This document shows positions 1 to 15,398 of a stretch of DNA of 15,398 nt, piece after piece (within the stretch, counting starts at the first letter, position 1; every line of letters starts with the position of its first letter). The notes beneath the pieces were generated by a model that saw only the letters and a program-made list of their open reading frames with translations, did not search any database and was not told where the DNA came from. This DNA is from a virus: IMG/VR virus record IMGVR_UViG_3300045988_074390; one strand, 5' to 3'. The position numbers and the translations under genes were made by a program.

Positions 1-110
1 GAGAGGGCTTTCGTTATTCCCAATGAGAACACGTCCCCCATTTGATTAAAAAAGCACGAAAAAATACTTGACAAATAATCTGACCTGTGGTATTATAATT
101 ATAGAAACAA
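1..110. repeat. Left inverted terminal repeat (110 bp, perfect)
   Basis: Bases 1-110 are the exact reverse complement of 15289-15398. Identity breaks at 111 (g, versus t on the other arm). The repeat starts at the first base of the window, as expected for a terminal-protein-capped linear genome. Confidence 0.97.
68..99 (+). promoter_or_regulatory. Early promoter inside the left ITR
   Basis: TTGACA (68-73), 17-nt spacer, then TGG-TATTAT (88-96, extended -10) overlapping TATAAT (94-99). An A-rich tract lies upstream. The first gene's AAGGAGGA SD lies about 30 nt downstream. Confidence 0.7.
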
Positions 111-144: not shown

Positions 145-612
145 ATGATTCAATACAGATTACATAACATCACTGATTTTGGTGTAGAAATCCACGACTT
201 TCACACTGAAAATTCACTGAACAATTATATAGCCTTATTCGTCGACCCTCCGTATTGGGTAGAAAATTTGTATACTAATAAAAACATTTATGTGGGTTTT
301 GATGGACGGGGCTACTCCAATCCGTCAGATGGAATTAAAGACTATATAGAGACAGTTAGTCCTAACAAACCAGATACCAATAATGTTTCACGTGAAATAC
401 CACATGAAAGTGAAATAGACTGGATAAAAAGGCATACACCTACAGAAGAAGAAAAAGAACCATGCACCAAACTAGAAAAGTTATCCTCTTTCTTAGGTAT
501 ATTATCAGTCATTATTATGGCAACATTTTTACTATATCTTTTCTTATCTTCTGTATCATTCATAGCGGAGCACTTTTCAGAGTTCACATGGAAAATATTT
601 AATATTTTATAA
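145..612 (+). CDS. Early tail-anchored membrane protein (155 aa) with an N-terminal DPPY motif; function unknown
   Basis: SD AAGGAGGA lies 8 nt upstream of the ATG. A single long hydrophobic segment, LSSFLGILSVIIMATFLLYLFLSSVSFIA, spans about residues 113-141. ALFVDPPYW at residues 30-38 resembles motif IV of N6/N4 DNA methyltransferases. No SAM-binding FxGxG motif is present. Confidence 0.75.
   Translation: MIQYRLHNITDFGVEIHDFHTENSLNNYIALFVDPPYWVENLYTNKNIYVGFDGRGYSNPSDGIKDYIETVSPNKPDTNNVSREIPHESEIDWIKRHTPTEEEKEPCTKLEKLSSFLGILSVIIMATFLLYLFLSSVSFIAEHFSEFTWKIFNIL
383..400. promoter_or_regulatory. Degenerate intragenic copy (16/18) of the ATGTTTCACGTGAAACAT palindrome
   Basis: ATGTTTCACGTGAAATAC lies inside the first early gene. 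A GTGAAATA half-site is repeated at 410-417. Confidence 0.5.
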
Positions 613-624
613 GGAGGAAAAATC

Positions 625-819
625 ATGGCAAAATTAACAAACAAATTATTGCGATATAAAGTGATGTTTACAAAAGGTGGAACAGGCGGCTACACCGCCC
701 GTGTCATGCTTCCAAAAGAAGCGGTTAAAGACTTAGATATCCATGCGGGTGATTATATCGAGTACACTCGTGTACCGCATGGCTTACTCTTAAGAAAAGT
801 GCAAAAGGAGGGGAACTAA
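625..819 (+). CDS. AbrB/MazE/SpoVT-fold DNA-binding protein (64 aa), putative transcription regulator
   Basis: SD AAGGAGGA is present. ARVMLPKEAVKDLDIHAGDYIEYTRVPHGLLLRK matches the swapped-hairpin pattern (v-iPkeir..lgi..GD.ve....dg.i.l.k) of AbrB-type domains. Confidence 0.7.
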   Translation: MAKLTNKLLRYKVMFTKGGTGGYTARVMLPKEAVKDLDIHAGDYIEYTRVPHGLLLRKVQKEGN

Positions 820-1549: not shown

Positions 1550-3442
1550 ATGCCACGAAAAAAGCAAATAACCTTTTGGGCTTGTGACTTTGAGACAACG
1601 GTATGGGGTGAAAAAGTAGAGCAAGAAAAAGGTAAAAAACAAGACAGTACAGAAGTATGGAGTGGGGCTGATGTGGCTTTATATGACAACACCGAAACTG
1701 TAACAATAACTCATTCGATAAGAGATTTTTTAAACAGGTTTTTGACAATGAAAGGCAATAATATATTGTACTTTCATAACCTCGCTTTTGACGGTTCATT
1801 CATCGTTGATTTTCTGTTAAAAGAGGGTTGGCGTTGGGTGCACTGTAAAGATAAAGAAATGAAATCAAAAGAATTTCAAACCTGTATATCCGATATGGGC
1901 TCATGGTACTGGATTAAATTAAAATGGAATAAGACTTTTTTAGAGATTAGGAACTCGTTGAAGCTTATGCCGTCTTCATTGAAAAATATAGGGAAATCAT
2001 TTGGCACAAAGCACCAAAAATTAGACATGGAATATACTGGTGAAAGATACGCGTATTGCGATATCTCAGATAGCGAGAAAAAATATATTGAAAATGATGT
2101 GTTAGTGTTAAAAGAAGCTCTTGAAATGATGTTTAATGAAAAACATGATAAACTAACTATAGGCTCGTGTTGCCTATCAGAATTCAAAGGCTTTTACGAA
2201 AATAAACAATATGATAAGTTGTTTCCCGATATCAGAGAAGATTATCTTGATGAATCAATCACAGGCGTATGGAATCAGTGGGACTATGTTCATAAATCAT
2301 ATCACGGTGGTTGGTGCTATGTAAATCCTCAATACGCGCATACGGTAGTGGGTTGGGGTTTAGTGTTAGACGTAAATTCTCTGTACCCGTCCATGATGCA
2401 TAGCATCAGTGGTAACAAATATCCATTTGGGCACGGGGAATATCATAGGGGAGCGCCACCCGATGAACTTATAAGCTCTACTAATAAATATTTTTTTATC
2501 CGTTTCAATTGTCGTTTTCAACTTAAAAAAGGAGCGTTCCCATGGCTTCATATTAGACAGAGTGCATTATATAAAGCCAATGAAAATTTATATAGTTCGA
2601 ACGTCAGATATAGAGGTGAATATTATCGCTATTATCGCGATATTGACGGACAGATGCATGACACTAATATTACTCTCACTATGACTTGCACAGACTGGGA
2701 GTTGTTCCAAGAAACTTATGATATATACGACTTGGTTATATATGATTATATATGGTTTTACGCTAGAGAGGGGTTTTTTGATGAATACATAGATAAATAC
2801 GGAGAAGAAAAGAGAACCTCAAAAGGTTTTAAAAGGCAGAAAGCGAAGCTCTTTTTAAATAATCTTTACGGAAAATTTGCCATGTCGGATAATTCCTCGT
2901 ATAAAGAGCCTTATCTTGACGAAGATGGAATTATTAGATTTATCTTGCACGAGGAACATGAGAAGAAAGTCGGCTATATTCCTATAGGTAGTGCTATTAC
3001 TTCATATGCCATGAATTTTACAATCCGTCATGCTATGGCAAATTATGACAGATTTTGTTATGCTGACACGGATTCCATACATTTGATTGGACTAGATAAA
3101 GCAAATCTGGTTGTAGAGCACCCGACGAATTTTTGTTGTTGGAAATGCGAGAGTACATTTGATTTTGCTTATTATGAACGTCAGAAAACTTATGCAGAGC
3201 ATATAGTTGAAGAGAATCACAAGCCTTGTGAGCCTTATCTTGACATTAAAGCGTGTGGCATGAGTAGCCAAGCCAAGCAAAAATTTATTGAAGAGGGAAA
3301 AAATATTTCAGAGTTATCTCAAGGTCTGAATATGGAGTCTTGCAACTTAAAGGCAGAGCGCGTGAAAGGTGGTATCGTATTAAGAAATAAAGACTTTAAA
3401 ATTCACGCTCAAAAAGATAAAAAATTATTATATAATACTTGA
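1550..3442 (+). CDS. Protein-primed family B DNA polymerase (630 aa)
   Basis: All polB motifs are visible. Exo I: ACDFETT. Exo II: FHNLAFDGSFI. Exo III: YIENDVLVL. Motif A: LDVNSLYPSMM. Motif B: KAKLFLNNLYGKF. Motif C: YADTDSIH. KxY: RQKTYAE. Insertions between the motifs are consistent with TPR1/TPR2 of phi29-type enzymes. Confidence 0.97.
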   Translation: MPRKKQITFWACDFETTVWGEKVEQEKGKKQDSTEVWSGADVALYDNTETVTITHSIRDFLNRFLTMKGNNILYFHNLAFDGSFIVDFLLKEGWRWVHCKDKEMKSKEFQTCISDMGSWYWIKLKWNKTFLEIRNSLKLMPSSLKNIGKSFGTKHQKLDMEYTGERYAYCDISDSEKKYIENDVLVLKEALEMMFNEKHDKLTIGSCCLSEFKGFYENKQYDKLFPDIREDYLDESITGVWNQWDYVHKSYHGGWCYVNPQYAHTVVGWGLVLDVNSLYPSMMHSISGNKYPFGHGEYHRGAPPDELISSTNKYFFIRFNCRFQLKKGAFPWLHIRQSALYKANENLYSSNVRYRGEYYRYYRDIDGQMHDTNITLTMTCTDWELFQETYDIYDLVIYDYIWFYAREGFFDEYIDKYGEEKRTSKGFKRQKAKLFLNNLYGKFAMSDNSSYKEPYLDEDGIIRFILHEEHEKKVGYIPIGSAITSYAMNFTIRHAMANYDRFCYADTDSIHLIGLDKANLVVEHPTNFCCWKCESTFDFAYYERQKTYAEHIVEENHKPCEPYLDIKACGMSSQAKQKFIEEGKNISELSQGLNMESCNLKAERVKGGIVLRNKDFKIHAQKDKKLLYNT

Positions 3443-3470
3443 CTATATTTTAGCGTCGTGTTATTATAAT
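3439..3470 (+). promoter_or_regulatory. Early-type promoter, copy A of a duplicated promoter
   Basis: TTGACT (3439-3444, overlapping the polymerase stop codon), 17-nt spacer, then TGT-TATTAT (3459-3467) overlapping TATAAT (3465-3470). The architecture and ACTTGAC core match the ITR promoters. Confidence 0.65.
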
Positions 3471-3506: not shown

Positions 3507-3695
3507 ATGGGTAAAAAAATTGAATATCCGTTAAACAGCTTGTACGGGGTAAGCTCAATGTCACATAGTAGTAATGTAAGAACTGACACAAATTTAAAAA
3601 ACGCTGAGATTACGGCTAAACTTATTACTATTCGTGATGGTTTTTTATATGCTGATACAGATAGTATATATGTAAGAGATTTAGATAAAAAATAA
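3507..3695 (+). CDS. 62-aa ORF retaining polB motif B-like (PLNSLYG) and motif C (YADTDSIYV); either a polymerase palm-fragment microprotein or a gene remnant
   Basis: It has its own SD (AAGGAG, 8-nt spacer) and its own promoter. The protein aligns by eye with resident polymerase residues ~431-520, with an internal deletion: LNNLYGKFAMSDNSS vs LNSLYGVSSMSHSS, AITS vs EITA, YADTDSIHLIGLDKA vs YADTDSIYVRDLDKK. The DNA is not a recent copy of the resident gene. Confidence 0.5.
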   Translation: MGKKIEYPLNSLYGVSSMSHSSNVRTDTNLKNAEITAKLITIRDGFLYADTDSIYVRDLDKK

Positions 3696-3712
3696 AAATT
3701 ATAACATAACAC

Positions 3713-3744
3713 TTGACTACATTTAATTGTTGTGTTATTATAAT
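3713..3744 (+). promoter_or_regulatory. Early-type promoter, copy B of the duplicated promoter
   Basis: TTGACT (3713-3718), 17-nt spacer, then TGT-TATTAT (3733-3741) overlapping TATAAT (3739-3744). The roughly 48-nt stretch 3711-3758 is an imperfect direct repeat of 3437-3487. Confidence 0.65.
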
Positions 3745-4134: not shown

Positions 4135-4485
4135 ATGGTAGAAATCAAAGAAATGAGTAGAGAGTTCACAAAGGTCGAGAAATATCTTATGACTACAGCG
4201 CCAGACATTGAGCCATTAAAAAATATTGACGATGGAGAATCTATCCCAGTTGACGGATATCTTATCTTTGATGATATCAAAGATAGCGGAGAAACACAGG
4301 AGATTGTAAGTATTATTACGCCTGAGAAAAAAGTATATTCTGGACAGTCTGCGACTTTTAGACAGTCTTTGAAAGACATTGAAAACGTGATGGAGGGCGA
4401 AAAATTCTCCATTATTAAAATCAGCGGAAAGACAAAAGCAGGACGCGATTATATTAATTGTACCTTAGACGTATCAAATTTATAA
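4135..4485 (+). CDS. Hypothetical early protein (116 aa); possible ssDNA-binding protein, by position and size only
   Basis: SD AAGGAGGT is present. It is the last gene of the second early operon and is followed by a strong terminator. The p5-like role is assigned only by analogy with phi29 gene order. Confidence 0.55.
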   Translation: MVEIKEMSREFTKVEKYLMTTAPDIEPLKNIDDGESIPVDGYLIFDDIKDSGETQEIVSIITPEKKVYSGQSATFRQSLKDIENVMEGEKFSIIKISGKTKAGRDYINCTLDVSNL

Positions 4486-4524
4486 TATGATGCCGTGAGA
4501 ATACCATTTTAATTCTCTTCTTCT

Positions 4525-4552
4525 AAAGGGGTGGCTATATGCCACCTCTTTT
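4525..4552 (+). terminator. Rho-independent terminator of the early operon
   Basis: A GC-rich stem GGGGTGGC (4528-4535) / GCCACCTC (4541-4548, one G-U pair) has a 5-nt loop TATAT. It is extended by A/T pairs and followed by TTTT. Confidence 0.8.
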
Positions 4553-4561
4553 ATAAAATAA

Positions 4562-4579
4562 ATGTTTCACGTGAAACAT
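4562..4579. promoter_or_regulatory. Perfect 18-bp palindrome ATGTTTCACGTGAAACAT, copy 1 (putative operator)
   Basis: Exact palindrome with a CACGTG core. It lies between the early terminator and the ATPase gene and overlaps the upstream in-frame ATG at 4578. Confidence 0.6.
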
Positions 4580-4595
4580 GAATGGAGGTGCTAAC

Positions 4596-5642
4596 ATGAT
4601 TGATGATGGTTATTATCATTGTGAGCGATTATTAACTATGAAAGATAAATACGGGAATACACCTGATATTTTTATTGTGGACGGCAACAGAACAGCGGGT
4701 AAAAGTTACTCTATTAAGTGTAGACAAGTCTCGGATTTTTTAAAAGATAAATACAGACCCGAAAATCAGTTTATCTATTTGTACCGCAATGTTGTTGATA
4801 TGAAGAACTGTGCCGACACTTATTTTGGAGATATTGCGGAAAAATTTGACGGTTATGTCATGACAGAAAAAAGTTTGATGCGTGGCGCGTTGGTGCAGTT
4901 ATTTATCAATGAAGAGCCATGCGGTTATTGTTTAGCTTTGTCGGTTGCGAGAAAGTATAAAAAAATGCGTGGGTTATTCGTCAATATCCGTTCTGTATTT
5001 TTTGACGAATATCAAGACGAAGATAATATATATTTGCCAAACGAAGTAAATAAATTACTGTCGTTACTTACAACTATCAGTTCGGGACATGGTAAACAGC
5101 ATAGGAGAGTTATGCTATATATGGCATCGAATACAGTCTCTTTGTTAAACCCTTACTATAGCGTGTTTGGTATCAATAAAATGTTAAAGAGAGACACCAA
5201 ATTTTTACGTGGTGATGGTTGGGTGTTTGAAAGAACTTATAATGAAAGCGCCTCAACAGCGTATAAGGAAAGTGCTATAGCAAGAGCTTTTCGTGGTGCT
5301 GAATACAACGAGTACGCCAGTGAAAACAAATATCTAAATGACAATGAATGTCTGATTGGGAAACCATCAGGGCAGTCACGTTATATTTGTACAATTAAGT
5401 ACAATGATAATCTATATAATGTAAGAAAATACGATGTGTGTCTATACGTGTCAACAGGTGCAGATGATAGTTTTCCTACCCGTATATGTTTTACAAAAAC
5501 CGATGTTATAGACAATACTGCTATTCGTGTCAACTCGACTCATTATATCGTTACGATGTTACGGGAATACTTTAACAGAGGTTTACTTTTGTTTGAAAAT
5601 TTGGAATGTAAGAACATGATATTTGATGTCATATCTTTTTAA
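4596..5642 (+). CDS. DNA encapsidation (packaging) ATPase, phi29 gp16-like
   Basis: Walker A is DGNRTAGKS and Walker B is SVFFDEYQDE. Other gp16-like blocks are present: QFIYLYR, YLPNEVNKLLSLL, ASNTVSLLNPYY. The start is set at ATG 4596, which has SD GGAGGTG 5 nt upstream. ATG 4578 has no SD and sits inside the palindrome. Confidence 0.9.
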   Translation: MIDDGYYHCERLLTMKDKYGNTPDIFIVDGNRTAGKSYSIKCRQVSDFLKDKYRPENQFIYLYRNVVDMKNCADTYFGDIAEKFDGYVMTEKSLMRGALVQLFINEEPCGYCLALSVARKYKKMRGLFVNIRSVFFDEYQDEDNIYLPNEVNKLLSLLTTISSGHGKQHRRVMLYMASNTVSLLNPYYSVFGINKMLKRDTKFLRGDGWVFERTYNESASTAYKESAIARAFRGAEYNEYASENKYLNDNECLIGKPSGQSRYICTIKYNDNLYNVRKYDVCLYVSTGADDSFPTRICFTKTDVIDNTAIRVNSTHYIVTMLREYFNRGLLLFENLECKNMIFDVISF

Positions 5643-5659
5643 TGTTTCACGTGAAACAT
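5642..5659. promoter_or_regulatory. Perfect 18-bp palindrome, copy 2 (20 bp with flanks 5641-5660)
   Basis: It starts on the last base of the ATPase stop codon and abuts or overlaps the -35 box of the 5659 promoter. Confidence 0.6.
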
Positions 5660-5690
5660 TGACATTTTAAATAATATATGATATCATAAT
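5659..5690 (+). promoter_or_regulatory. Early-type promoter firing into the 254-bp non-coding gap
   Basis: TTGACA (5659-5664), 17-nt spacer, then TGA-TATCAT (5679-5687) overlapping CATAAT (5685-5690). No SD-preceded ORF lies downstream before the 5825-5842 hairpin. Confidence 0.6.
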
Positions 5691-5808
5691 ATCGTACCCA
5701 AAATAATACGGGCATTGTAATTGATATACACGCACATAGACAAGTAGTCTGATATCAATTTTTGGCTTTGCGTTCCCTTTGATTCGATTATTTTGTAACG
5801 TACACAAA

Positions 5809-5826
5809 ATGTTTCACGCGAACAAT
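5809..5826. promoter_or_regulatory. Degenerate palindrome copy (15/18) in tandem with copy 3
   Basis: ATGTTTCACGCGAACAAT overlaps the perfect copy at 5825-5842 by 2 nt. Confidence 0.5.
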
Positions 5827-5842
5827 GTTTCACGTGAAACAT
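5825..5842. promoter_or_regulatory. Perfect 18-bp palindrome, copy 3 (20 bp with flanks); possible terminator hairpin and/or operator
   Basis: Exact copy followed by TTTTATTT. It ends 5 nt upstream of the -35 box of the lysis/late promoter. Confidence 0.6.
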
Positions 5843-5847
5843 TTTTA

Positions 5848-5876
5848 TTTACAAATATTGTTATTTGTGTTATGAT
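5848..5876 (+). promoter_or_regulatory. Late-type promoter upstream of the holin-endolysin cassette
   Basis: TTTACA (5848-5853), 17-nt spacer, then TGT-TATGAT (5868-5876). The -35 box is weaker than in the early promoter family. Confidence 0.55.
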
Positions 5877-5896
5877 AGAAAAAAGGAGGTGATATC

Positions 5897-6133
5897 ATGG
5901 CAAATGAAGTTATCACATTAATTAATAGTTTAGGGCTTCCGACCGTGGTTGCGTGTGCGTCCATGTGGTATGTAAAGTACAGAGAGGACAAAAACGACCA
6001 AAAAATTGAAAAAATGACGGAAGAACACAAGGAAGAAATGACAGATATTACGGACGCGTTAAATAATAATACGTTAGCGCTACAACGTATATGTGACATT
6101 TTTGATAGTAAGGAGGACATGAAACATGAGTAA
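5897..6133 (+). CDS. Holin, BhlA/UviB-like (78 aa)
   Basis: SD AAGGAGGTG is present. One N-terminal TM segment (ITLINSLGLPTVVACASMWYV) is followed by a charged coiled region (KYREDKNDQKIEKMTEEHKEEM), as in BhlA-family holins. The gene overlaps the endolysin start by 8 nt. Confidence 0.7.
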   Translation: MANEVITLINSLGLPTVVACASMWYVKYREDKNDQKIEKMTEEHKEEMTDITDALNNNTLALQRICDIFDSKEDMKHE

Positions 6134-7112
6134 AAAAGCTGTAGATATCTCATATCATAACGGTGTCATTGATTTTGAGAGATTAAAAAACGCTGTTGAT
6201 TATGTAATTATTCGATGTGGATATGGGCAGGATATGATATCACAAGACGATAAACAGTGGGCAAGAAATGTCAGTGAGTGCGAACGGTTGGGTATTCCAT
6301 ACGGAGTGTATTTTTATTCCTATGCAAAAACCACAGCTAGAATCGAGGGTGAAATTAATCACTGTCTTAGATTATTAAAAGGTCACACGCCTAATTTACC
6401 TGTATTTTTTGACAGTGAAGAAAAAGGAACACAGGGTGTTGCAAAGCATAACGCAAAGCGTTTTTGTGATGCAATGCTGACACATGGTTATAAGGCAGGA
6501 ATCTACGCTAGTAAATCATGGTTCGAGAATTACATTGGTGAGACATGGGGATATGATTTATGGATAGCTAGATACTCGAATGTGCTAGGTGTAGACAATG
6601 TTGATATTTGGCAGTATTCTAGTAATGGGTCTGTTGATGGTATTAACGGAAGATGTGACGTGAATCATGTTTACAAAGACTATGGTACTTCAAATTCTGC
6701 TCCACCTACACCACAGCACCCTACTAGCTCCGTAAGACCAAGAAATGAATTGATTGCTTTAGGACAACAGCACGCGATTAATTTTACGCAACATAAAATT
6801 GCAGTTGACGGTATTGTAGGAAGAAACACGAAAAGAATGGCAGTCCGTGTGGTACAAAGAGCCATGAATGCAGATTACGGGGACACTATTGCAGAGGACG
6901 GGATTGTCGGTAAAAAGACAAGAGCAAAAGCAGGTAGACATTATGTAAAGCGAGGAGAAACACAGTTTCTTGTGACAGCACTTGAAATATTATGTTTATT
7001 GCAAGGAAAAGACCCGAACGGGGTAGAGTGCCCTGGGACATTTGGAGGTGGACTGGCACGCGCTTGTGGGCGTGAATTCGTTTACGCAAAAGATATGTTG
7101 CATATGGTTTAA
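6126..7112 (+). CDS. Endolysin: GH25 muramidase with a C-terminal peptidoglycan-binding repeat domain
   Basis: The N-terminus follows the GH25 pattern: VDISYHNGVIDF..., YVIIRCGYG, GIPYGVYFYSY, DSEE, IYASKSWF, DIWQYSSNGSVDGINGRCDVN. The C-terminus has two DGIVG(R/K)xT repeats typical of PG_binding_1-like domains. Confidence 0.9.
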   Translation: MSKKAVDISYHNGVIDFERLKNAVDYVIIRCGYGQDMISQDDKQWARNVSECERLGIPYGVYFYSYAKTTARIEGEINHCLRLLKGHTPNLPVFFDSEEKGTQGVAKHNAKRFCDAMLTHGYKAGIYASKSWFENYIGETWGYDLWIARYSNVLGVDNVDIWQYSSNGSVDGINGRCDVNHVYKDYGTSNSAPPTPQHPTSSVRPRNELIALGQQHAINFTQHKIAVDGIVGRNTKRMAVRVVQRAMNADYGDTIAEDGIVGKKTRAKAGRHYVKRGETQFLVTALEILCLLQGKDPNGVECPGTFGGGLARACGREFVYAKDMLHMV

Positions 7113-7113
7113 T

Positions 7114-7131
7114 TTTATTCACGTGGAACAA
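7114..7131. promoter_or_regulatory. Degenerate palindrome copy (13/18, intact CACGTG core) in tandem with copy 4
   Basis: TTTATTCACGTGGAACAA lies immediately upstream of the perfect copy. Confidence 0.4.
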
Positions 7132-7132
7132 A

Positions 7133-7150
7133 ATGTTTCACGTGAAACAT
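7133..7150. promoter_or_regulatory. Perfect 18-bp palindrome, copy 4 (24-bp perfect palindrome 7130-7153)
   Basis: It lies in the 55-nt gap between the endolysin and tail hydrolase genes, directly before the AAGGAGGG SD of 7168. No -35/-10 pair is visible here. Confidence 0.6.
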
Positions 7151-7167
7151 TTTAAGGAGGGTAGCAA

Positions 7168-8175
7168 ATGCCAAATATTAATGTAGCCTATCAGTGGGCA
7201 GTCAATGCGTGCAATGCTCCCAACATTGGATATTCTCAGCAATACCGAAGAGGGCAGACCGTGAACGGTATTACTTATTATGACTGTAGCTCTTTTATTT
7301 CAAAAGCACTTACAGAAGCAGGGTTCTTTTCAGTGAACCCGTGGTTCACCACAAGGACAGAGGAGGGATATCTATTACAGGCAGGCTTTAAAGAGATTAG
7401 TATTAATGAGGCATGGCAGGCAGGGGATATTGTATGGCGTAGCGGTCACACAGAGATGGTATATCAGGGGGCAGGTGCAGGAAATGGCGGTATTACCATG
7501 GGAGCGCACAGTGGACGTTACCCATTACCCGAACAGGTCAGCATTAATACATATGTTTCCAAACCGTCCGCGTGGTCAAAGATATATCGTTATGGTGATA
7601 GTGCAGGAATGCCCCTTGAATGGATTCATGGAAACCGCTATCTTACAGAAGATGAAATGAAGAACAATGCTTATGTGTTCTATAGCACGATGTTTTTCAA
7701 AGATTTCACTCTAAATGCCATTGCCGGTATGCTAGGAAATATTGAAATTGAGTCAACTATCAATCCCGAACTATGGCAGTCCTTAAAAGAGGGGAACTAT
7801 GACGGTGGCTATGGTTTAGTACAGTGGACACCTGCCACGAACTACACGAACTGGGCGAATGCCCACGGATACGATATCACAGATGGTTATTATCAGTGTG
7901 TATGGTTAGACGAGGAGACAGAAAAAAGCGGACAGTGGATTGAGACAGCGAAATATCCGATATCATGGGAAGAGTTTCGAAAGTCCACAAAAGAACCGGA
8001 TTATCTCGCGTCAGTATTTCTAAAAAATTTTGAACGTGCAGGGGTTGAAAAAGAAGACGACAGAAAAAAGAATGCATTAAAATGGTATGCGTATTTGCAG
8101 TCATTATCGCCATATCCAGTACACCCACACGGAAAAAAGAAAAAAATGCCTCTTTACTTTTTCTTGCCTTGGTGA
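7168..8175 (+). CDS. Tail-associated peptidoglycan hydrolase: N-terminal NlpC/P60-like cysteine peptidase plus C-terminal phi29 gp13-type phage tail lysozyme domain
   Basis: The N-terminus has a YDCSSFISKAL catalytic-Cys context and GDIVWRSGHTEMVY His context. The C-terminus has AGMLGNIEIESTINP...GGYGLVQWTP...QCVWLDEE, typical of the gp13 N-terminal lysozyme-like family. Confidence 0.75.
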   Translation: MPNINVAYQWAVNACNAPNIGYSQQYRRGQTVNGITYYDCSSFISKALTEAGFFSVNPWFTTRTEEGYLLQAGFKEISINEAWQAGDIVWRSGHTEMVYQGAGAGNGGITMGAHSGRYPLPEQVSINTYVSKPSAWSKIYRYGDSAGMPLEWIHGNRYLTEDEMKNNAYVFYSTMFFKDFTLNAIAGMLGNIEIESTINPELWQSLKEGNYDGGYGLVQWTPATNYTNWANAHGYDITDGYYQCVWLDEETEKSGQWIETAKYPISWEEFRKSTKEPDYLASVFLKNFERAGVEKEDDRKKNALKWYAYLQSLSPYPVHPHGKKKKMPLYFFLPW

Positions 8176-8518: not shown

Positions 8519-9790
8519 ATGGCAGAAGCAACCAACGCGAATATTTTAAAAGCGGTTACACAGGAACTTTCTTTTGAGGTTCAGAATCATTTACCAACAG
8601 AGGTATCAGACAATTTACAGGCAGTGTATGACAACATTTTAAATTACGCTCCTGTAAGAAATGAGATTGTGCCATCACTCATTAACCGTATCGGCATGCA
8701 GACGGTGGACAGTATCGCGTGGAGAAATCCGTTAGCGCGATTTAAGAAAGAGCCAATGCGCTATGGAGAGACACACGAGGAAACTTATGTAAATATGTGC
8801 AAGGGTCGTGTCTATGATTCACAGGCAGATTTTAAATTTGCTTTTCAGCAATACCAGTCCTATATTATGAGCGTATTTCATAATGTAAATCTTGAAATCC
8901 AGTACCCTGTCACAGTGACTTATGACAACTTGAGAAAAGCATTCACAAGCGAGTATGGAATCCGCGACATGATTATGGCAAAAATGGAGAGCGCTATCAC
9001 AGGAGCGAACTGGGACGAATACCTTGCAATGCGTGATTTGATTAATGTCGGGTATGAAAAAGAGGTGCTTCCGGCAGTGACTGTTGACGCGATTGTAGAT
9101 GAAGCATCAGCGAAAAAGTTATTGATTGAGGTCAAAAGAGCAGTTGGAGAGTTTGGCTTCCCATTGCCGGAAAACAATCCAGCCGGAGCAACTTCTCATG
9201 CAATGCCGTCAAATCTAATTTGGATAACAACACCGGAAGTCAATGCACAGATTAGTGTTGACGCTTTAGCGTATGCGTTCCATATGGATAAGGCAGACGT
9301 AGCAGTTCAGACAGTGATTGTAGATAAATTTGCGAATAGTGCAATACAGGGCGTTCTTTGTGACGTGCGATTCTTCAATGTACGCGACCAGTTCAAAGAA
9401 ATGACTGACCAGAGATTGGCAAATGTGTTATCATGGAATTATTTCTATACACAGGTGGAAATGGTGAGCGCGAGCCCGTTCTACCCGATTCGTGTATTTA
9501 CAACGGATGCTGTCGTTGAAAAACCAACTTTAGGCGTCAAGGCAGGAACTTACACAGCAGGGCAGACACAGGAAGTAGAAGTAACTGTGACAGGTGATGC
9601 AGGCACATATCATCAGAATTTGGTGACTCTTGAAGTTGACAGCGGTGCAACCTCAGCAAAGACTTACGTTATCCCAGGGACACATTTACTTCACACAGGA
9701 GCGGACGAGACGGGAACGATTGTCTTAAAAGCAATTTACAGACCAGACGAGACTATCACAAAAACTGTAAATTTTACCAAACAGGGTTAG
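8519..9790 (+). CDS. Major capsid protein (423 aa) with a C-terminal Ig-like region
   Basis: Its position between scaffold and tail genes, its size, and a strand-rich C-terminus (VEVTVTGDAGTYHQNLVTLEVDSGATSAKTYVIPG...GTIVLKAIYRPDETITKTVNF) resemble BIG2-type decoration domains of gp8-like capsids. The family call is by synteny and composition. Confidence 0.8.
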   Translation: MAEATNANILKAVTQELSFEVQNHLPTEVSDNLQAVYDNILNYAPVRNEIVPSLINRIGMQTVDSIAWRNPLARFKKEPMRYGETHEETYVNMCKGRVYDSQADFKFAFQQYQSYIMSVFHNVNLEIQYPVTVTYDNLRKAFTSEYGIRDMIMAKMESAITGANWDEYLAMRDLINVGYEKEVLPAVTVDAIVDEASAKKLLIEVKRAVGEFGFPLPENNPAGATSHAMPSNLIWITTPEVNAQISVDALAYAFHMDKADVAVQTVIVDKFANSAIQGVLCDVRFFNVRDQFKEMTDQRLANVLSWNYFYTQVEMVSASPFYPIRVFTTDAVVEKPTLGVKAGTYTAGQTQEVEVTVTGDAGTYHQNLVTLEVDSGATSAKTYVIPGTHLLHTGADETGTIVLKAIYRPDETITKTVNFTKQG

Positions 9791-9830
9791 TTGAGTCGTT
9801 TAAATCTATAGATTTCAATGCAACTGACCC
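9769..9830 (+). promoter_or_regulatory. Candidate -1 programmed ribosomal frameshift signal (slippery heptamer plus stem-loop)
   Basis: A_AAT_TTT at 9769-9775 has zero-frame codons AAT and TTT. An 8-nt spacer follows. The 10-bp stem is 9784-9793 GGGTTAGTTG / 9821-9830 CAACTGACCC (one G-U pair), with a nested palindrome AAATCTA/TAGATTT at 9802-9815. Confidence 0.45.
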
Positions 9831-9837
9831 TTTAGTC

Positions 9838-10119
9838 ATGAGCGCGGGTATTGCTGATGGTATTGGTATTCACAATAATACAAACAAAGGTATACCAATA
9901 GATTTAATTAAAAAAGGATATTTCACCAATGTAAAAAATGAAGATGGGACTAGATTGCTCGTAGACAAACAACGGTCAAGTGTATACGATGTATATAAAA
10001 ATTATATAGCCTTTGACGCTTGTGATAAAATACAAACGGTTAACACGTATCTTGAATTAATATTAATTAATGATACTATATTAAGAACCACATCGGTTAT
10101 AGAGGTGATAGTAAAGTGA
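9838..10119 (+). CDS. Small structural ORF (93 aa from ATG 9838), possibly expressed as a 114-aa -1 frameshift extension of the capsid protein (from 9775)
   Basis: It is the only gene without an SD. Its frame is open back to 9640, across the capsid 3' end. Its TGA overlaps the GTG start of the tail-knob gene (GTGA at 10116-10119), which suggests translational coupling. Confidence 0.55.
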   Translation: MSAGIADGIGIHNNTNKGIPIDLIKKGYFTNVKNEDGTRLLVDKQRSSVYDVYKNYIAFDACDKIQTVNTYLELILINDTILRTTSVIEVIVK

Positions 10120-11732
10120 TAAATTTACCAACACAGGGAGGGGTTGCACCACGCAACCCCGAAACAAAATTAAGGTTATACAGTGGTGTGCCATGGTCTG
10201 ATGAATATGAACACGTTAGACTATACAACTCGAAAGAAGATTTACTAAATCATTTAGAGTTGTATCGTAAACATATCAATGGTGTTGATTTGTCGCACCT
10301 TGCACCTATTAAACTAGGAAATTATGATATCCGTGTGCCGTTCACAGAAATGAAAGCGCTTAATCTCAATTATTTAGCTTTTCAGAATAGTGGGATATCT
10401 AACGAATGGGTGTTTTGCTTTATTGACTCCATCGAATGGCTATCAGAAAAAACAACTAGAATCAATTTTTCTTTAGACGTTTTTCAGAATAACTTCTATG
10501 ATGCAAATATCAAGCCATGCTTTGTTGAGTATCATCACATTCCAAGGAGTAAAGACGAGATAGGAGCAAATCTAACACCTGTTAATATTGAAACGGGTGA
10601 AACAATTGTATCACGACACAAAAAATTAGACTTAACGCCAACAGATTGTTGCGCTTTTGTCACAAGAGGAACAGCAGAACAAAGTTGGTTCGAGGGACGT
10701 GTGGAAAATGGTGTTTACTGTTGGGGCAGTATTGGGCACTATGATGTAACTACAGAAGATGGTCTGAAAGGAATCAACACATTATTGGAAGATTACAACA
10801 ACCAAGGAGCGCAAGATGCAGTCATAGGATTGTTCATGTCCCCTAAATTATGTACTCTTGCTTTAGGTGGGAAAGAGATAAAGCCTAAAATAACAATCAT
10901 GCAGATTTCTGACAACGTCTTTGAGGGATATAAACCAAAAAATAAAAAGTTATATTCATATCCATGGCTGTTTTGTTTGGCAGATAATAACCAAGGAAAC
11001 ACACACATCTACAGATATGAATACAGTTACAATCGTGATAAATCTCTTGAGTTTGACAGCTACGGAACAATCGCAACACTACCGCAAGTCTTGACAACAC
11101 CTAAAAACTACAAGACACGCGAAGAATTAGGTCATGGGTTAATGAATGAAGCACTTATTAACTCTTCATTTCCTATGTGTTCGTTCTCCTCAGACACTTA
11201 TCGAGCGTGGTTAGCGCAAAACAAAAGTTCTATAGCACTATCGCAAGTTCACACTGCCGTAGATGCTACCATGGGAACAGGCACAGCAATAGCAGGGTTA
11301 GCAGGAGGAAGCTTACAAGGAGGTCTTAACGGACTAGGCAAAACAACGAATGCTTTTTGGGACGCTCTTGGAATGTTAGCAAATCAGACAGACAGAGCGA
11401 GAAACGCTGGAGTGACACACGGAAAAGCATTATCCGAAAATGTGTTGACAGGTATTAAAGAGTGTGGTGTTGACTTCTATGAAATGTCATGTAAAAAACA
11501 ATTTGCAGAAATGGCAGACAGTTTTTTTGAACAGTTCGGTTATCCAATTAATAAAATCGCTACCCCTTATTTACACTCAAGAGCCTACTGGAATTATGTA
11601 AAAACATCTCATTGTGGCTTTACTGGTGATATTGATTTAGACCAATTGAAAAAACTGAGAAATATATTTGACAACGGCGTGACTTTGTGGCATACTGATG
11701 ACATAGGGAATTATGGTTTATTGAATAACTAA
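10116..11732 (+). CDS. Tail knob / distal tube protein, phi29 gp9-like (538 aa, GTG start)
   Basis: SD AGAGGTGA is present. The N-terminal pattern matches gp9: LRLYSGVPWSDEYEHVRLYNSKEDLLNHL, YLAFQNSGISNEWVFCFIDSIEWLSEKTTRINFSLDVFQ (phi29 has ...YIMFQNADYGNKWFYAFVTELEFKN...FEIDVLQTW). Confidence 0.85.
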   Translation: MINLPTQGGVAPRNPETKLRLYSGVPWSDEYEHVRLYNSKEDLLNHLELYRKHINGVDLSHLAPIKLGNYDIRVPFTEMKALNLNYLAFQNSGISNEWVFCFIDSIEWLSEKTTRINFSLDVFQNNFYDANIKPCFVEYHHIPRSKDEIGANLTPVNIETGETIVSRHKKLDLTPTDCCAFVTRGTAEQSWFEGRVENGVYCWGSIGHYDVTTEDGLKGINTLLEDYNNQGAQDAVIGLFMSPKLCTLALGGKEIKPKITIMQISDNVFEGYKPKNKKLYSYPWLFCLADNNQGNTHIYRYEYSYNRDKSLEFDSYGTIATLPQVLTTPKNYKTREELGHGLMNEALINSSFPMCSFSSDTYRAWLAQNKSSIALSQVHTAVDATMGTGTAIAGLAGGSLQGGLNGLGKTTNAFWDALGMLANQTDRARNAGVTHGKALSENVLTGIKECGVDFYEMSCKKQFAEMADSFFEQFGYPINKIATPYLHSRAYWNYVKTSHCGFTGDIDLDQLKKLRNIFDNGVTLWHTDDIGNYGLLNN

Positions 11733-11747
11733 AGGAGGTGTATATAA

Positions 11748-12647
11748 GTGAAAAATCCGTTACGAGTTTTCGAACTAAATATTAATAAAAAGAAAAACAG
11801 TGATTTTGACATAATAAAATCTATCTTTTTTTATGATATTTTCGATATCTTTGTAAACAGGTATCAATGGCATAATCTACCCGAAGAAATTCTACCGATG
11901 TACATTGAACAAACCTTATTTTGGCATGGCTTGGGTGTATTCATCAAGGACAATATTGCAGGATATGCTTTCATGAATGTTTCATTATCGGGTTTACCAG
12001 ATATTTATAATATTCCTCAAGACAGAATCGCTTATACTGCAAATGGGTACATTAAAGAATACGGTAAAGAAAACAGTTGTATCTTATGGAATAACTACTC
12101 AACTATGCCGTATTACTATAAAGCATTGATGTATGCCGATGCAATGGCTAATACTTGGAAAACAAAGGGTATTAATATGTATGCACAGCGTACACCTGTT
12201 GCCCTTTCCGCATCAGACAATGAAAAAATGAGTTTTGAAATACTGGGAGAAATGTACGATAATTATTTACCTGTATTAAAAGTTTCTGATTCGCTAAACT
12301 TGAAAGACATCAAAGCACTGGACATGGGAGCGCCTTACATTGTAGATAAATGCGAACAGGAATTGAGAGATTTATGGTCGCAAGTGTTAACGTCTTTAGG
12401 ATATGAGAGTAACCCAGTGGAAAAAGGGGAACGCCTTGTCACAGGTGAGACAGCAGGTAATAACGGACAGGTTGAAGCAAACCGAAATGTTGGTCTTACA
12501 TTAAGAAGAAGATGTGCAAATGCTATCAATGAGTTATGGAATCTTAATGTAACGGTAGACTTCAATAGTGAATTGCCTACTATGCTAAATGGTTACATAC
12601 CCGACAAGTATATGCAAAAAGGGAAAGAGGGTGACGAGATTGAGTAA
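11748..12647 (+). CDS. Portal / upper collar connector protein, phi29 gp10-like (299 aa, GTG start)
   Basis: SD AGGAGGTG is present. Blocks recalled from phi29 gp10 are present: WHNLPEEILPMYIEQTLFWHG, NMYAQRTPVAL (NQNAQKTPVLI), GAPYIVDKC (DAPYVVDKL), KGERLVTGET (KKERMVTDEV), INELWNLNVTVDF (INELYGLNVKVKF). Confidence 0.92.
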   Translation: MKNPLRVFELNINKKKNSDFDIIKSIFFYDIFDIFVNRYQWHNLPEEILPMYIEQTLFWHGLGVFIKDNIAGYAFMNVSLSGLPDIYNIPQDRIAYTANGYIKEYGKENSCILWNNYSTMPYYYKALMYADAMANTWKTKGINMYAQRTPVALSASDNEKMSFEILGEMYDNYLPVLKVSDSLNLKDIKALDMGAPYIVDKCEQELRDLWSQVLTSLGYESNPVEKGERLVTGETAGNNGQVEANRNVGLTLRRRCANAINELWNLNVTVDFNSELPTMLNGYIPDKYMQKGKEGDEIE

Positions 12648-13341
12648 ATACACTACTACAGTTAAAGATATTTGTGAAAGCTTTATCCCTAGACAAGAAC
12701 TATGGAGCATGGACTTATCCGTGCAAAGAACCATAGATAAAACACAAGACAAATTTTTCAACTTTGATTTCCCGTTTTATTCTGATGACAGAAAAGATTT
12801 ATATACTTTTAAGACATACTTTTTACTTAGGTATTGGAATAATTATATAGGGTTTGAAACTCTAGGAATGTGGAAAACTGCTTTCAGTGCAAAAATGCAT
12901 GAATTAATGCCGTATTATACTAAATTGTATGATGCAATTCAAGATGATAACCCTTTTACAAATGTAAATATAACAATCACAGAAGCAGAAAAAGGAAACG
13001 AAAAAACAACAACAAAATCAACAGATGCAGGAAACAGTGAAGTAAAAAACAGCCAAAATTATCAGAATATTGATAGTGATAACCCACAAGTCACAGTAGC
13101 CACACAAGACTACGCAAATGCTATGAGTAGGGGTGAAACTGTCAATAATACTACAACAACAGCAAAAAATGACCACACAGGAAACGACAACAAAGACAGC
13201 AAAAGAGACAGAGACACGAAAGAAATAGGATTAAGAGGAATATCAACAAGTGAAGCAATCGAAAAATACCGCGACCAAATACAGAATATCAACCGAGAAC
13301 TTGTGGAAGCTTGTCGGGATTTATTCATGAAAGTTTGGTAA
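12640..13341 (+). CDS. Lower collar protein, gp11-like (TTG start, 233 aa)
   Basis: It lies immediately after the portal gene. TTG 12640 is preceded by GAGGGTG with a 6-7 nt spacer and overlaps the portal stop by 8 nt. The region FPFY...FLLRYWNNYIGFETLGMWKTAFSAKMHELMPYYTKLY is typical of Picovirinae lower collar proteins, with a low-complexity polar middle region. Confidence 0.7.
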   Translation: MSKYTTTVKDICESFIPRQELWSMDLSVQRTIDKTQDKFFNFDFPFYSDDRKDLYTFKTYFLLRYWNNYIGFETLGMWKTAFSAKMHELMPYYTKLYDAIQDDNPFTNVNITITEAEKGNEKTTTKSTDAGNSEVKNSQNYQNIDSDNPQVTVATQDYANAMSRGETVNNTTTTAKNDHTGNDNKDSKRDRDTKEIGLRGISTSEAIEKYRDQIQNINRELVEACRDLFMKVW

Positions 13342-13356
13342 AAGGAGGTGTGATAT

Positions 13357-14196
13357 ATGGTAGGAAATATAAAGCCTTTATTCCCTTTACTTTGCTGTGA
13401 CGTCCCTAGCGTGTACAGTAATAAGCAGAGTTATTATGAATGCTTATGTTATATTGGGTATAAAGTTAATGAGTGTATAGGCGCTATCAATGGGTTTACT
13501 GATGCTTACAAACAGTACACAGATGAAAAAGTAGCAGAATTAAAAACGTATATTGACGGACTTAACCGTGATATCTACAACCATATCACGGAAGTGGAAA
13601 CGAATATCCGTCATGATATGGACACTAGAGATAATGAGCTTGACGAAAAAATCAATAAAGTACAGACAAATTTACTCGATAAAATCAGTACGTTAAACAT
13701 TCTGATATATGATTTAAACGCTGAGACAAGAGCGCATATCGACACAGAAGTTAAAAAACTCTATGATTATATCAATGATTATGTGCCAAATAATATGGAA
13801 GTACTTAACCCTGTTAGAGGGTATCGTACAAGCTTGAACCAAGCATTAGCTGATATGTATGATAACCTACGTTATTATGCTTTGACCTGTAACGAGTTTG
13901 ATTCCTTGAATTTAAGTTGTACAGAATTTGACGGGTTATCAATTAACTGTACAGAGTTTGACTTGTACGGTGCAAAAAGATTCAGAGTAGATAGCAACTT
14001 ATATATGCATGACCCGTTTACAGGCGAGTATGTTTTTTACCAAGATGTAATTTACAAGCTTGCAGAGTTGCATTTTGATGACCCAATTACAGCTAGCGAG
14101 TTTGACGCTTTATTATTGACGGTGACAGCATTCCAGTCTAAAGCCTTAAGCGCTTATACATTTGACAGTAACGCAAAAACGGCGTTAAAATTATAA
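13357..14196 (+). CDS. Tail fibre / appendage protein (279 aa) with a coiled-coil and xEFD decapeptide repeats
   Basis: SD AAGGAGGTG is present. The N-terminal SYYECLCYIGYKVNECIGAINGF resembles the conserved N-terminus of Gram-positive phage fibre proteins. The centre has heptad character. The C-terminus has C(N/T)EFD repeats. Confidence 0.5.
   Translation: MVGNIKPLFPLLCCDVPSVYSNKQSYYECLCYIGYKVNECIGAINGFTDAYKQYTDEKVAELKTYIDGLNRDIYNHITEVETNIRHDMDTRDNELDEKINKVQTNLLDKISTLNILIYDLNAETRAHIDTEVKKLYDYINDYVPNNMEVLNPVRGYRTSLNQALADMYDNLRYYALTCNEFDSLNLSCTEFDGLSINCTEFDLYGAKRFRVDSNLYMHDPFTGEYVFYQDVIYKLAELHFDDPITASEFDALLLTVTAFQSKALSAYTFDSNAKTALKL
13888..13977 (+). repeat. Three tandem 30-nt (10-aa) repeats encoding C-[NT]-E-F-D-x-L-x-[LI]-x
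   Basis: TGT-AAC/ACA-GAG/GAA-TTT-GA(T/C) recurs at 13888, 13918 and 13948. Diverged copies (ASEFD, YTFD) lie downstream in the same ORF. Confidence 0.8.
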
Positions 14197-14927: not shown

Positions 14928-14940
14928 GAGTAAATCTTTA

Positions 14941-14976
14941 ATACTTAAACCCTCCGCAATAGGAGGGTTTAAGTAT
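14941..14976. terminator. Bidirectional intrinsic terminator between convergent genes
   Basis: A 15-bp perfect stem ATACTTAAACCCTCC (14941-14955) / GGAGGGTTTAAGTAT (14962-14976) has a 6-nt loop GCAATA. Flanking sequence is T/A-rich on both sides. Confidence 0.8.
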
Positions 14977-15257
14977 TAATCTATTAATTCTATCAAATTA
15001 TTATAATCATTCCAATAATACAAATCGCCATTATACGTCACCAAAAAATCTTTATTTGATGTATTATCTCGCCCCTCTAATAAATAATATTTACATTCAA
15101 CAATCTTATTATTAATAATATCAACATGTGTACCATAACATACAGCATTTTCTTTTAAATAATGAATGAAATCTTTCTTTGTTTTTTCTTTCATTAATTT
15201 TACAGTTTCCTTTTCAAAACTAAACCATCTAATTATATTTCGTTTTTTAAACCTCAT
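14976..15257 (-). CDS. Hypothetical right-end early protein (93 aa), the only leftward gene
   Basis: SD AAGGAGGA lies 6 nt upstream of the ATG on the minus strand. It is driven by the right-ITR promoter. No recognisable motif was found. Confidence 0.75.
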   Translation of the reverse strand: MRFKKRNIIRWFSFEKETVKLMKEKTKKDFIHYLKENAVCYGTHVDIINNKIVECKYYLLEGRDNTSNKDFLVTYNGDLYYWNDYNNLIELID

Positions 15258-15288: not shown

Positions 15289-15398
15289 TTGTTTCTATAA
15301 TTATAATACCACAGGTCAGATTATTTGTCAAGTATTTTTTCGTGCTTTTTTAATCAAATGGGGGACGTGTTCTCATTGGGAATAACGAAAGCCCTCTC
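15289..15398. repeat. Right inverted terminal repeat (110 bp, perfect)
   Basis: Exact reverse complement of 1-110, ending at the last base of the window. Confidence 0.97.
15300..15331 (-). promoter_or_regulatory. Early promoter inside the right ITR (mirror of 68-99)
   Basis: The sequence is identical to the left ITR promoter by ITR symmetry. On the minus strand, TTGACA is 15326-15331 and TATTAT is 15303-15308. Confidence 0.7.

Follow-up and report, generated by a model that had tools for sequence, protein, structure and literature searches.

Palindromic sites in a phi29-like phage genome

We analyzed the DNA of IMG/VR virus record IMGVR_UViG_3300045988_074390 (15,398 nucleotides [nt]; hereafter, the window), in which a family of short palindromes lies around the packaging ATPase and lysis genes. 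Because the window is bounded by perfect inverted terminal repeats (1 to 110 and 15289 to 15398; 110 nt, 100% complementary), it represents an entire linear genome of 15.4 kb. It encodes a gp16-type packaging ATPase, a phi29-type capsid protein, a tail knob, a connector, a holin, a GH25 endolysin, and a tail lysozyme. Nearly all genes lie on the plus strand, and ~90% of the genome is coding. Based on this protein set and gene orientation, the virus is a phi29-like podophage of the gut. The ATPase start was assigned from a GGAGGTG ribosome-binding site; an ATG at 4578 sits within a palindrome and is missing in relatives. Table 1 lists the features discussed below.

An earlier prediction, made from the sequence alone, had reported four exact copies of an 18-mer and three partial ones. 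Our sequence scan confirmed all seven positions: ATGTTTCACGTGAAACAT occurs exactly at 4562 to 4579, 5642 to 5659, 5825 to 5842, and 7133 to 7150, and weaker copies lie at 383 to 400 (2 mismatches, 16/18), 5809 to 5826 (3 mismatches, 15/18), and 7114 to 7131 (TTTATTCACGTGGAACAA, 13/18). The longer palindromes of 20, 20, and 24 bp that the original prediction described are present as well (5641 to 5660, 5824 to 5843, and 7130 to 7153). At up to 3 mismatches, 6 matches were observed, compared to 0.01 ± 0.10 in 200 dinucleotide shuffles, in agreement with the claim that the copies are beyond chance.

The placement given for these copies relative to the ATPase gene, two promoters, and the gap between the endolysin and tail-lysin genes was also accurate. 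The copy at 4562 lies 6 nt past a strong terminator hairpin and directly ahead of the ATPase ribosome-binding site. At 5642, the 18-mer opens with the closing base of the ATPase stop codon (5640 to 5642), and its final T is the first T of a −35 element, TTGACA. The third copy, at 5825, ends 5 nt ahead of the −35 element TTTACA of the promoter at 5848 to 5876, while the copy at 7133 is flanked by the endolysin stop codon and the tail-lysin ribosome-binding site. Measured from the 16-bp core of the 18-mer, the distance to the −35 hexamer is 0 nt for the site at 5643 and 6 nt for the site at 5826; both distances are unchanged in 61 relatives. Altogether, there are five positional sites: four perfect ones within 2.6 kb and the site at 384.

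Table 1. Coordinates of parS sites and neighboring features in the window
Feature	Position	Strand	Basis or remark
Left inverted terminal repeat	1–110		Partner 15289–15398; repeat I1
parS with one mismatch (TGTTTCACGTGAAATA), within the first gene (open reading frame [ORF] 145–612)	384–399		Orthologous site perfect in most close relatives
AbrB/MazE-fold small protein	625–819	+	Pfam PF04014
Conventional intrinsic terminator (AAAGGGGTGGC..GCCACCTCTTT plus T-run), 6 nt 5' of parS 4563	4525–4556	+	Hairpin ~4525–4551, −18.2 kcal/mol, z = −5.8
Perfect consensus parS, between early-operon terminator and ATPase ribosome-binding site	4563–4578		Position kept in 62 relatives
gp16-type DNA packaging ATPase, parS on either side	4597–5642	+	Pfam PF05894, E = 7.7e-34
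Perfect consensus parS, first base after ATPase stop, adjoining −35 TTGACA	5643–5658		Sequence
Strong sigma-70-type promoter of small RNA (TTGACA, 17 nt, TG-n-TATCAT)	5659–5687	+	11/12 matches; invariant in relatives
Conserved structured noncoding RNA, candidate packaging RNA, between parS 5643 and 5826	5694–5805	+	Fold z = −3.5
Composite hairpin built from a half-site and a full parS (−17.6 kcal/mol), then TTTTTATTT	5806–5850	+	Folding; terminator position of relatives
Degenerate parS partner (TGTTTCACGCGAACAA), left half-site intact	5810–5825		Pairs with right half of next site in predicted hairpin
Perfect consensus parS, 6 nt 5' of holin/endolysin promoter −35	5826–5841		Kept in relatives
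Holin/endolysin unit promoter (TTTACA, 17 nt, TG-n-TATGAT)	5848–5876	+	Sequence
Degenerate parS-like site (TTATTCACGTGGAACA, 3 mismatches)	7115–7130		Kept in L090 and L026
Perfect consensus parS, between endolysin and tail-lysin genes	7134–7149		Kept in relatives

The palindromes match consensus parS

The original prediction did not recognize the motif as a known bacterial site. However, the 16-bp core, TGTTTCACGTGAAACA, is consensus parS, the site at which chromosomal ParB (Spo0J) binds. Four window sites match the parS consensus TGTT(T/N)CACGTGAAACA at 16/16 positions and one matches at 15/16. The same core serves as consensus parS in ParB biochemistry and crystallography: a crystallized oligonucleotide, GATGTTTCACGTGAAACATC, includes the full 18-mer, and the corresponding paper calls the core consensus parS. 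Among the matches listed, all papers containing the 16-mer deal with ParB/parS, chromosome segregation, or origin mapping. Gut Clostridia possess ParABS, and mapping with the same string gave 1 to 10 such parS sites per chromosome in gut bacteria, Clostridia among them. By sequence identity, then, the palindromes are canonical parS centromere sites. A dimeric DNA-binding protein had been proposed as their ligand; this is likely to be right, as parS is the site of a ParB/Spo0J dimer.

Searches with Pfam and PHROG found no ParB domain and no partition-ATPase domain in any window ORF, the sole ATPase being the gp16 packaging enzyme. Since no phage ParB domain was found, the reader protein must be host derived, and since the phage has no parA or parB, the sites must act in trans with host proteins. 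A self-contained ParABS cassette was rejected, as cognate parA and parB were not found among the window ORFs. ParB binding in the actual host and its biological pay-off are inferred.

Conservation of parS in related and unrelated phages

To assess conservation, we used two sets of relatives that were assembled without reference to the motif. The first comprised 68 loci retrieved by DNA polymerase, including 62 close relatives (87 to 96% polymerase identity). The motif is conserved in related phages: the five positional sites are kept at orthologous positions in the 62 close relatives, and of the 68 loci as a whole, 33 carry five perfect sites and another 17 carry four. Distant sisters (62 to 69% polymerase identity) have no sites, except for one with two. 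Within ORF 145–612, the site is conserved far above the neighboring codons. At the tandem arrangement around 5810, relatives carry TGTTTCACG(T/C)G followed by 4 to 5 nt and a full site. The second set consisted of 79 gut phi29-like genomes of another clade, totaling 1.15 Mb. At least one perfect site was present in 19 of them, and 26 had a site with at most one mismatch. Intergenic DNA held 26 of the 35 perfect sites, compared with a noncoding share of ~10%, and the A...T flanks that complete the 18-mer were present at 28 of the 35.

Taking both sets together, 302 of 379 sites with up to 2 mismatches are perfect, and just 1 of 29 double mutants is still palindromic. Because compensatory variation is absent, it is the sequence that is selected and not a stem or hairpin. 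Such a pattern is expected of a DNA site that a protein reads and not of a hairpin.

Two relatives with ~66% polymerase identity carry parS in tandem: L077 at 7808 to 7875 and L028 at 9083 to 9127 each have two or three copies at 26- to 29-bp spacing, just 5' of the ribosome-binding site that precedes the first gene of the lysis module, in the manner of a plasmid centromere array. L077 has three tandem sites at 26-bp spacing.

Recombination boundaries had also been suggested as a role for the palindromes. A 100-nt identity map of 60 relatives displayed pervasive mosaicism, with sharp breaks inside the holin gene (position 5900 or beyond) or at the endolysin C terminus; the breakpoints lie inside genes or at gene ends and not at the sites, which leaves this proposal weak. 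The nucleotide map did not bear out an ATPase identity of 55% from the first tblastn search, as the region is ~78 to 90% identical.

Beyond these relatives, the exact 18-mer was found in at least 120 viral contigs ranging from 27 to 70% G+C, of which about one-third are phi29-like. The same sequence in phages of such different composition points to a conserved host factor. A ParB box II pattern (GERRxRA) had no match in 120 motif-bearing contigs. In 21 other contigs, a Pfam search of the 112 ORFs of at least 120 amino acids (aa) within 3 kb of parS clusters returned phage structural genes and no ParB. The other parS-bearing phages therefore also seem to rely on host ParB.

Dense arrays occur among phage contigs that have no detectable proteins in common with the window. 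L052, an IMG/VR contig of 116 kb and 65% G+C, has 12 near-perfect parS copies within 5 kb (8906 to 13878) at 200- to 1,000-bp spacing; L022, L010, and L011/L109 have similar arrays. Within 3 kb of such arrays, ORFs of at least 120 aa showed no ParB domain. Phages far outside the phi29-like group may commonly have captured host parS.

The original prediction had proposed that a phage-encoded dimeric regulator, either the AbrB-like protein at 625 to 819 or another early protein, uses the palindromes as operators in an early/late switch resembling that of phi29 p4. The dyad symmetry, the location of two sites at promoters, and an AbrB/MazE-fold DNA-binding protein encoded in the early region would fit such a switch. 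Nonetheless, the sequence is the universal host parS and is the same in unrelated phages across the G+C range given above, three of the five sites are off promoters, and no p4 or p6 homologue was detected in the window ORFs with Pfam or PHROG; the late promoter, moreover, has a −35-like element, TTTACA. The AbrB-like protein was rejected as the binder, since tblastn detected its homologues in five related genomes without sites (L182 and L184 to L187). Adjacency to promoters was likewise rejected as a general rule: among 59 independent phage parS sites, a promoter started within 12 nt at 2, compared to 4.5% of random positions. A phage-encoded switch of this kind is thus very unlikely.

Hairpins, terminator, and small RNA

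Two of the perfect sites stand in tandem with partial copies, and each tandem arrangement can form a 13-bp hairpin. At 5806 to 5845, the stem is formed by the upstream half-site and the distal half of the perfect site, and UUUUUAUUU follows. The second hairpin, at 7118 to 7146, is built from 7115 to 7130 and 7134 to 7149 (−17.1 kcal/mol) and is followed by only 4 U residues. At the position equivalent to 5806 to 5850, directly before the holin-promoter −35, the five parS-less relatives have an ordinary G+C-rich hairpin with a T-run. From its predicted fold, the hairpin at 5806 to 5850 is likely the intrinsic terminator of the small RNA encoded upstream. Given the ordinary terminator in the parS-less relatives, the window lineage appears to have converted its terminator hairpin into parS.

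Could the palindromes work as RNA hairpins alone (terminators, attenuators, processing sites, or stabilizers), with no protein reading the DNA? The two tandem folds are indeed strong (z scores of about −5.3 for the first and −5.6 for the second), and a U-run follows the hairpin that takes the place of the relatives' standard terminator. However, single sites, with their AU-rich stems, give weak folds (−6.1 and −8.9 kcal/mol), coding sequence surrounds the site at 384, and the excess of identical sites and scarcity of palindromic double mutants described above are not what structure would preserve. Nor would an element selected for structure only be expected to match parS at 16/16 positions in unrelated phages. 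A purely RNA-level role is hardly credible. The original prediction was correct that terminator function alone is insufficient; its alternative of RNA hairpins stands as a secondary role of the two tandem arrangements and falls for the sites in general.

The small RNA itself is ~115 nt long and strongly promoted, and it lies between the packaging ATPase and holin genes (window 5659 to 5850). The order of ATPase, promoter, RNA, terminator, and late promoter is retained even in the parS-less relatives. Conserved motifs of the RNA include CAAGUAG, CCCUUU, and ACGGG. RNAalifold, applied to six diverged homologues, predicted 30 pairs, 22 of them with compensatory changes. A covariance model of the RNA matched the window clade only. 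Searching Rfam with 5660 to 5860 (E ≤ 10) returned spurious microRNA-like matches to the palindrome only and no packaging RNA (pRNA) family; over the whole window, Rfam gave nothing at E ≤ 1. The small RNA is a candidate for a divergent packaging (prohead) RNA. The pRNA of phi29, in comparison, is encoded at the genome end, whereas the RNA in the window lies next to gp16.

Probable recruitment of host ParB

Our preferred explanation is that the phage recruits host ParB (Spo0J) through parS so that its genome is carried into daughter cells or spores; by analogy with phi29, we regard this as probable. After injection, a dimer of the host's chromosomal ParB would nucleate on the five sites, load as a cytidine triphosphate (CTP)-gated clamp, and spread over the 15-kb genome. 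The phage DNA would thereby be coupled to the ParA/SMC segregation machinery of the host, and infected cells that do not lyse would hand the phage genome to daughter cells or forespores, as described for phi29. The sites occupy rare noncoding gaps because a rigid 16-bp sequence fits most easily there in a genome that is nearly all coding; they come after terminators and stop codons and ahead of promoters or ribosome-binding sites. Two of them would have taken on a second, RNA-level role by pairing with the partial copies upstream.

The host is likely a gut clostridial bacterium and not Bacillus. A megablast search of the whole window against GenBank phages gave no match, and distant blastn detected only a short similarity in the tail lysin. 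The closest cultured relatives infect Clostridium symbiosum, with 45% polymerase identity, and one scan of genome contigs found a near-identical contig in a metagenome-assembled genome (MAG) bin labeled Clostridia.

Several observations weigh against recruitment of ParB for carriage. The sister lineages L182 and L184 to L187, as well as GA-1, lack any site; because they manage without it, the parS trait is accessory. Hints of the host are limited to the Clostridia MAG bin and the C. symbiosum phages just mentioned. No Spo0A consensus box (TGTCGAA) occurs in the window, compared to ~1.8 expected by chance and six in phi29; the relaxed form TGNCGAA occurs four times, none near a promoter. Because no Spo0A boxes were found, spore entrapment specifically, and with it the full spore program of phi29, is unproven. 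Unless held by the terminal proteins, ParB clamps may slide off the ends of so short a linear DNA. Finally, two sites abut −35 boxes or lie very close to them, so that in this lineage they could have a regulatory role beyond simple partition.

Such a role would make host ParB a repressor or silencer with the parS sites as its operators, possibly in addition to partition. ParB bound to, or spreading from, the sites at 5643 and 5826 would occlude the −35 elements of the small-RNA and holin/endolysin promoters, and at 4563 and 7134 it would form a roadblock ahead of the ATPase and tail-lysin genes. The phage would thereby be kept from packaging and lysis while dormant or in a carrier state, a control that would stand in for the phi29 Spo0A boxes. 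In plasmid RK2, the ParB-family repressor KorB has operators that lie beside −35 boxes and bring about silencing. The invariant distance between core and −35 hexamer at the two promoters is in line with silencing, as is the lack of Spo0A boxes in the window. In addition, PMC5521831 reports that in P. aeruginosa the chromosomal ParB represses promoters adjacent to high-affinity parS. On the other hand, promoters are not enriched at the 59 independent phage sites considered above, the phi29 sites are mostly inside genes, the adjacency in the window may merely result from scarce intergenic space, and the site at 5826 is also accounted for as the small-RNA terminator. We consider silencing unlikely; it is also the most interesting reading still standing.

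An improbable but consequential combination is that parS serves as centromere and operator at once, with host ParB silencing packaging and lysis while it partitions the genome. If so, this nominally lytic gut podophage would have a dormant or carrier state that the host controls and that is possibly spore borne, with no need for a repressor of its own or for Spo0A boxes. Capturing parS would then be a recurrent means of persistence among gut phi29-like phages and many others.

Upstream of the site at 4563, the stretch 4458 to 4556 has a conserved perfect −10 element, TATAAT (4481 to 4486), with a weak −35, TTGTAC, ~40 nt 5' of the terminator at 4525 to 4551. No promoter is evident from this terminator to the ATPase gene. 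Expression of the ATPase may depend on terminator read-through or attenuation, which a ParB roadblock at 4563 could modulate.

A decoy was weighed as well: replicating genomes, with perfect parS sites in the hundreds to thousands, would titrate ParB and SMC loading away from the host origin, and lytic growth would benefit as host chromosome organization or division is disturbed or SMC is drawn to phage DNA. Five predicted top-affinity sites per 15 kb, set against 1 to 10 per gut-Firmicute chromosome, and the lack of detectable partition proteins among the phage ORFs would agree with this. However, many sister phages lack the sites, and work on phi29 favors segregation over titration. A decoy function is accordingly most improbable.

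The pay-off of host ParB recruitment could thus be partition in dividing carrier cells, spore hitchhiking with a different shut-off, promoter silencing, or titration of ParB and SMC; among these, a centromere acting in trans is ranked first. What had been an operator for an unspecified protein becomes a specific host-phage interaction that is open to testing, in which the predicted top-affinity ParB sites of a 15-kb gut phage are as numerous as those of an entire bacterial chromosome. If host ParB indeed partitions or silences these genomes, it would become easier to understand how small, strictly lytic phages persist and spread with gut bacteria that are anaerobic and often form spores.

Other features of the window

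Extended, similar early promoters are present at 42 to 99, 3413 to 3470, and 3687 to 3744 and, on the minus strand, at 15300 to 15357, following the pattern AAAAAAT..ACTTGAC..17 nt..TG-n-TATTATAAT. Each inverted terminal repeat contains one copy, directed inward, and no parS accompanies any member of this family. At 14938 to 14979, a very long hairpin of 18 pairs separates the plus-strand late genes from a lone minus-strand ORF of 93 aa (14976 to 15257), which is transcribed inward from the promoter in the right repeat. By analogy, this hairpin looks like a bidirectional terminator similar to TD1 of phi29.

Comparison with known systems

For phi29, PMC2731898 reports five parS sites, an involvement of host Spo0J in forespore or spore entrapment (citing Meijer et al. 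2005), and six Spo0A boxes that shut down the phage promoters; the parS sites of Nf are likewise linked there to spore entrapment by host Spo0J, with the same study cited. In the phi29 record, we found four copies of TGTTTCACGTGGAACA, one copy with three mismatches, and six TGTCGAA boxes, five of them beside phi29 promoters. The window resembles phi29 in being a protein-primed podophage with no ParB domain found, multiple copies of chromosomal parS, and a site right after the packaging-ATPase stop codon; as in spore entrapment, parS is carried by a phi29-like phage of virulent type without a ParB of its own. The two differ in several respects. The phi29 sites are a one-mismatch variant and mostly intragenic, whereas the window sites are perfect copies of the consensus and four of five are intergenic. 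Only in the window do two sites abut a −35 element or lie within 6 nt of it, and only there do two sites form long hairpins with partial copies. In addition, the main genes of the window are all on one strand and its host is likely a gut clostridial bacterium, unlike the Bacillus host of phi29.

The junction of stop codon and parS recurs. In phi29, gp16 ends at 17242 and parS occupies 17243 to 17258, directly after the ATPase stop; in the cultured Clostridium phage CS229P1, a coding sequence ends at 10527 and parS follows at 10528 to 10543. The arrangement TAA followed by TGTTTCAC... is thus seen at 5640 to 5658 in the window, 17240 to 17258 in phi29 (L121), and 10525 to 10543 in CS229P1 (L192), three lineages that share only 33 to 45% polymerase identity. 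Either the linkage is ancient or parS was inserted repeatedly at this position. A rule that parS always follows the ATPase stop was rejected: it fails in Nf, CI130P2, and CH17P1, and GA-1 has no sites.

In the papers searched, phage-borne parS in phi29-like genomes was found discussed for phi29 and Nf only, and a 2024 review of phi29-like phage diversity mentions neither parS nor Spo0J. The fixation of parS in a large uncultured phi29-like family, together with its patchy spread elsewhere, therefore appears to be undescribed. The finding extends a known principle, that of phi29 parS and Spo0J, and is not a new one. The nearest GenBank records of this family are from human feces, and the fixation of five sites in it suggests that use of Spo0J in the manner of phi29 is no peculiarity of Bacillus.

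The p4 sites of phi29 are inverted repeats near promoters of a phi29-like phage, as are those in the window. However, the window sequence is unrelated, most of its sites are off promoters, and its motif is common to unrelated phages and bacterial chromosomes. The centromeres of chromosomal ParABS systems, which form clusters near oriC in Firmicutes and most bacteria, share with the window the same 16 bp, multicopy clustering, and selection on sequence. Unlike them, the window sites are on a virulent-type phage without parA or parB, a 15-kb linear replicon capped by terminal proteins. Plasmid and phage-plasmid cassettes, such as ParAB-parS of P1 and N15, offer a functional analogy, in that centromere-like repeats are bound by a ParB-family protein, as is predicted for the window phage. 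Yet the P1, N15, and RK2 systems encode their own ParB or KorB and have site sequences of their own, whereas the window phage, in which no ParB domain was found, carries the consensus of the host chromosome.

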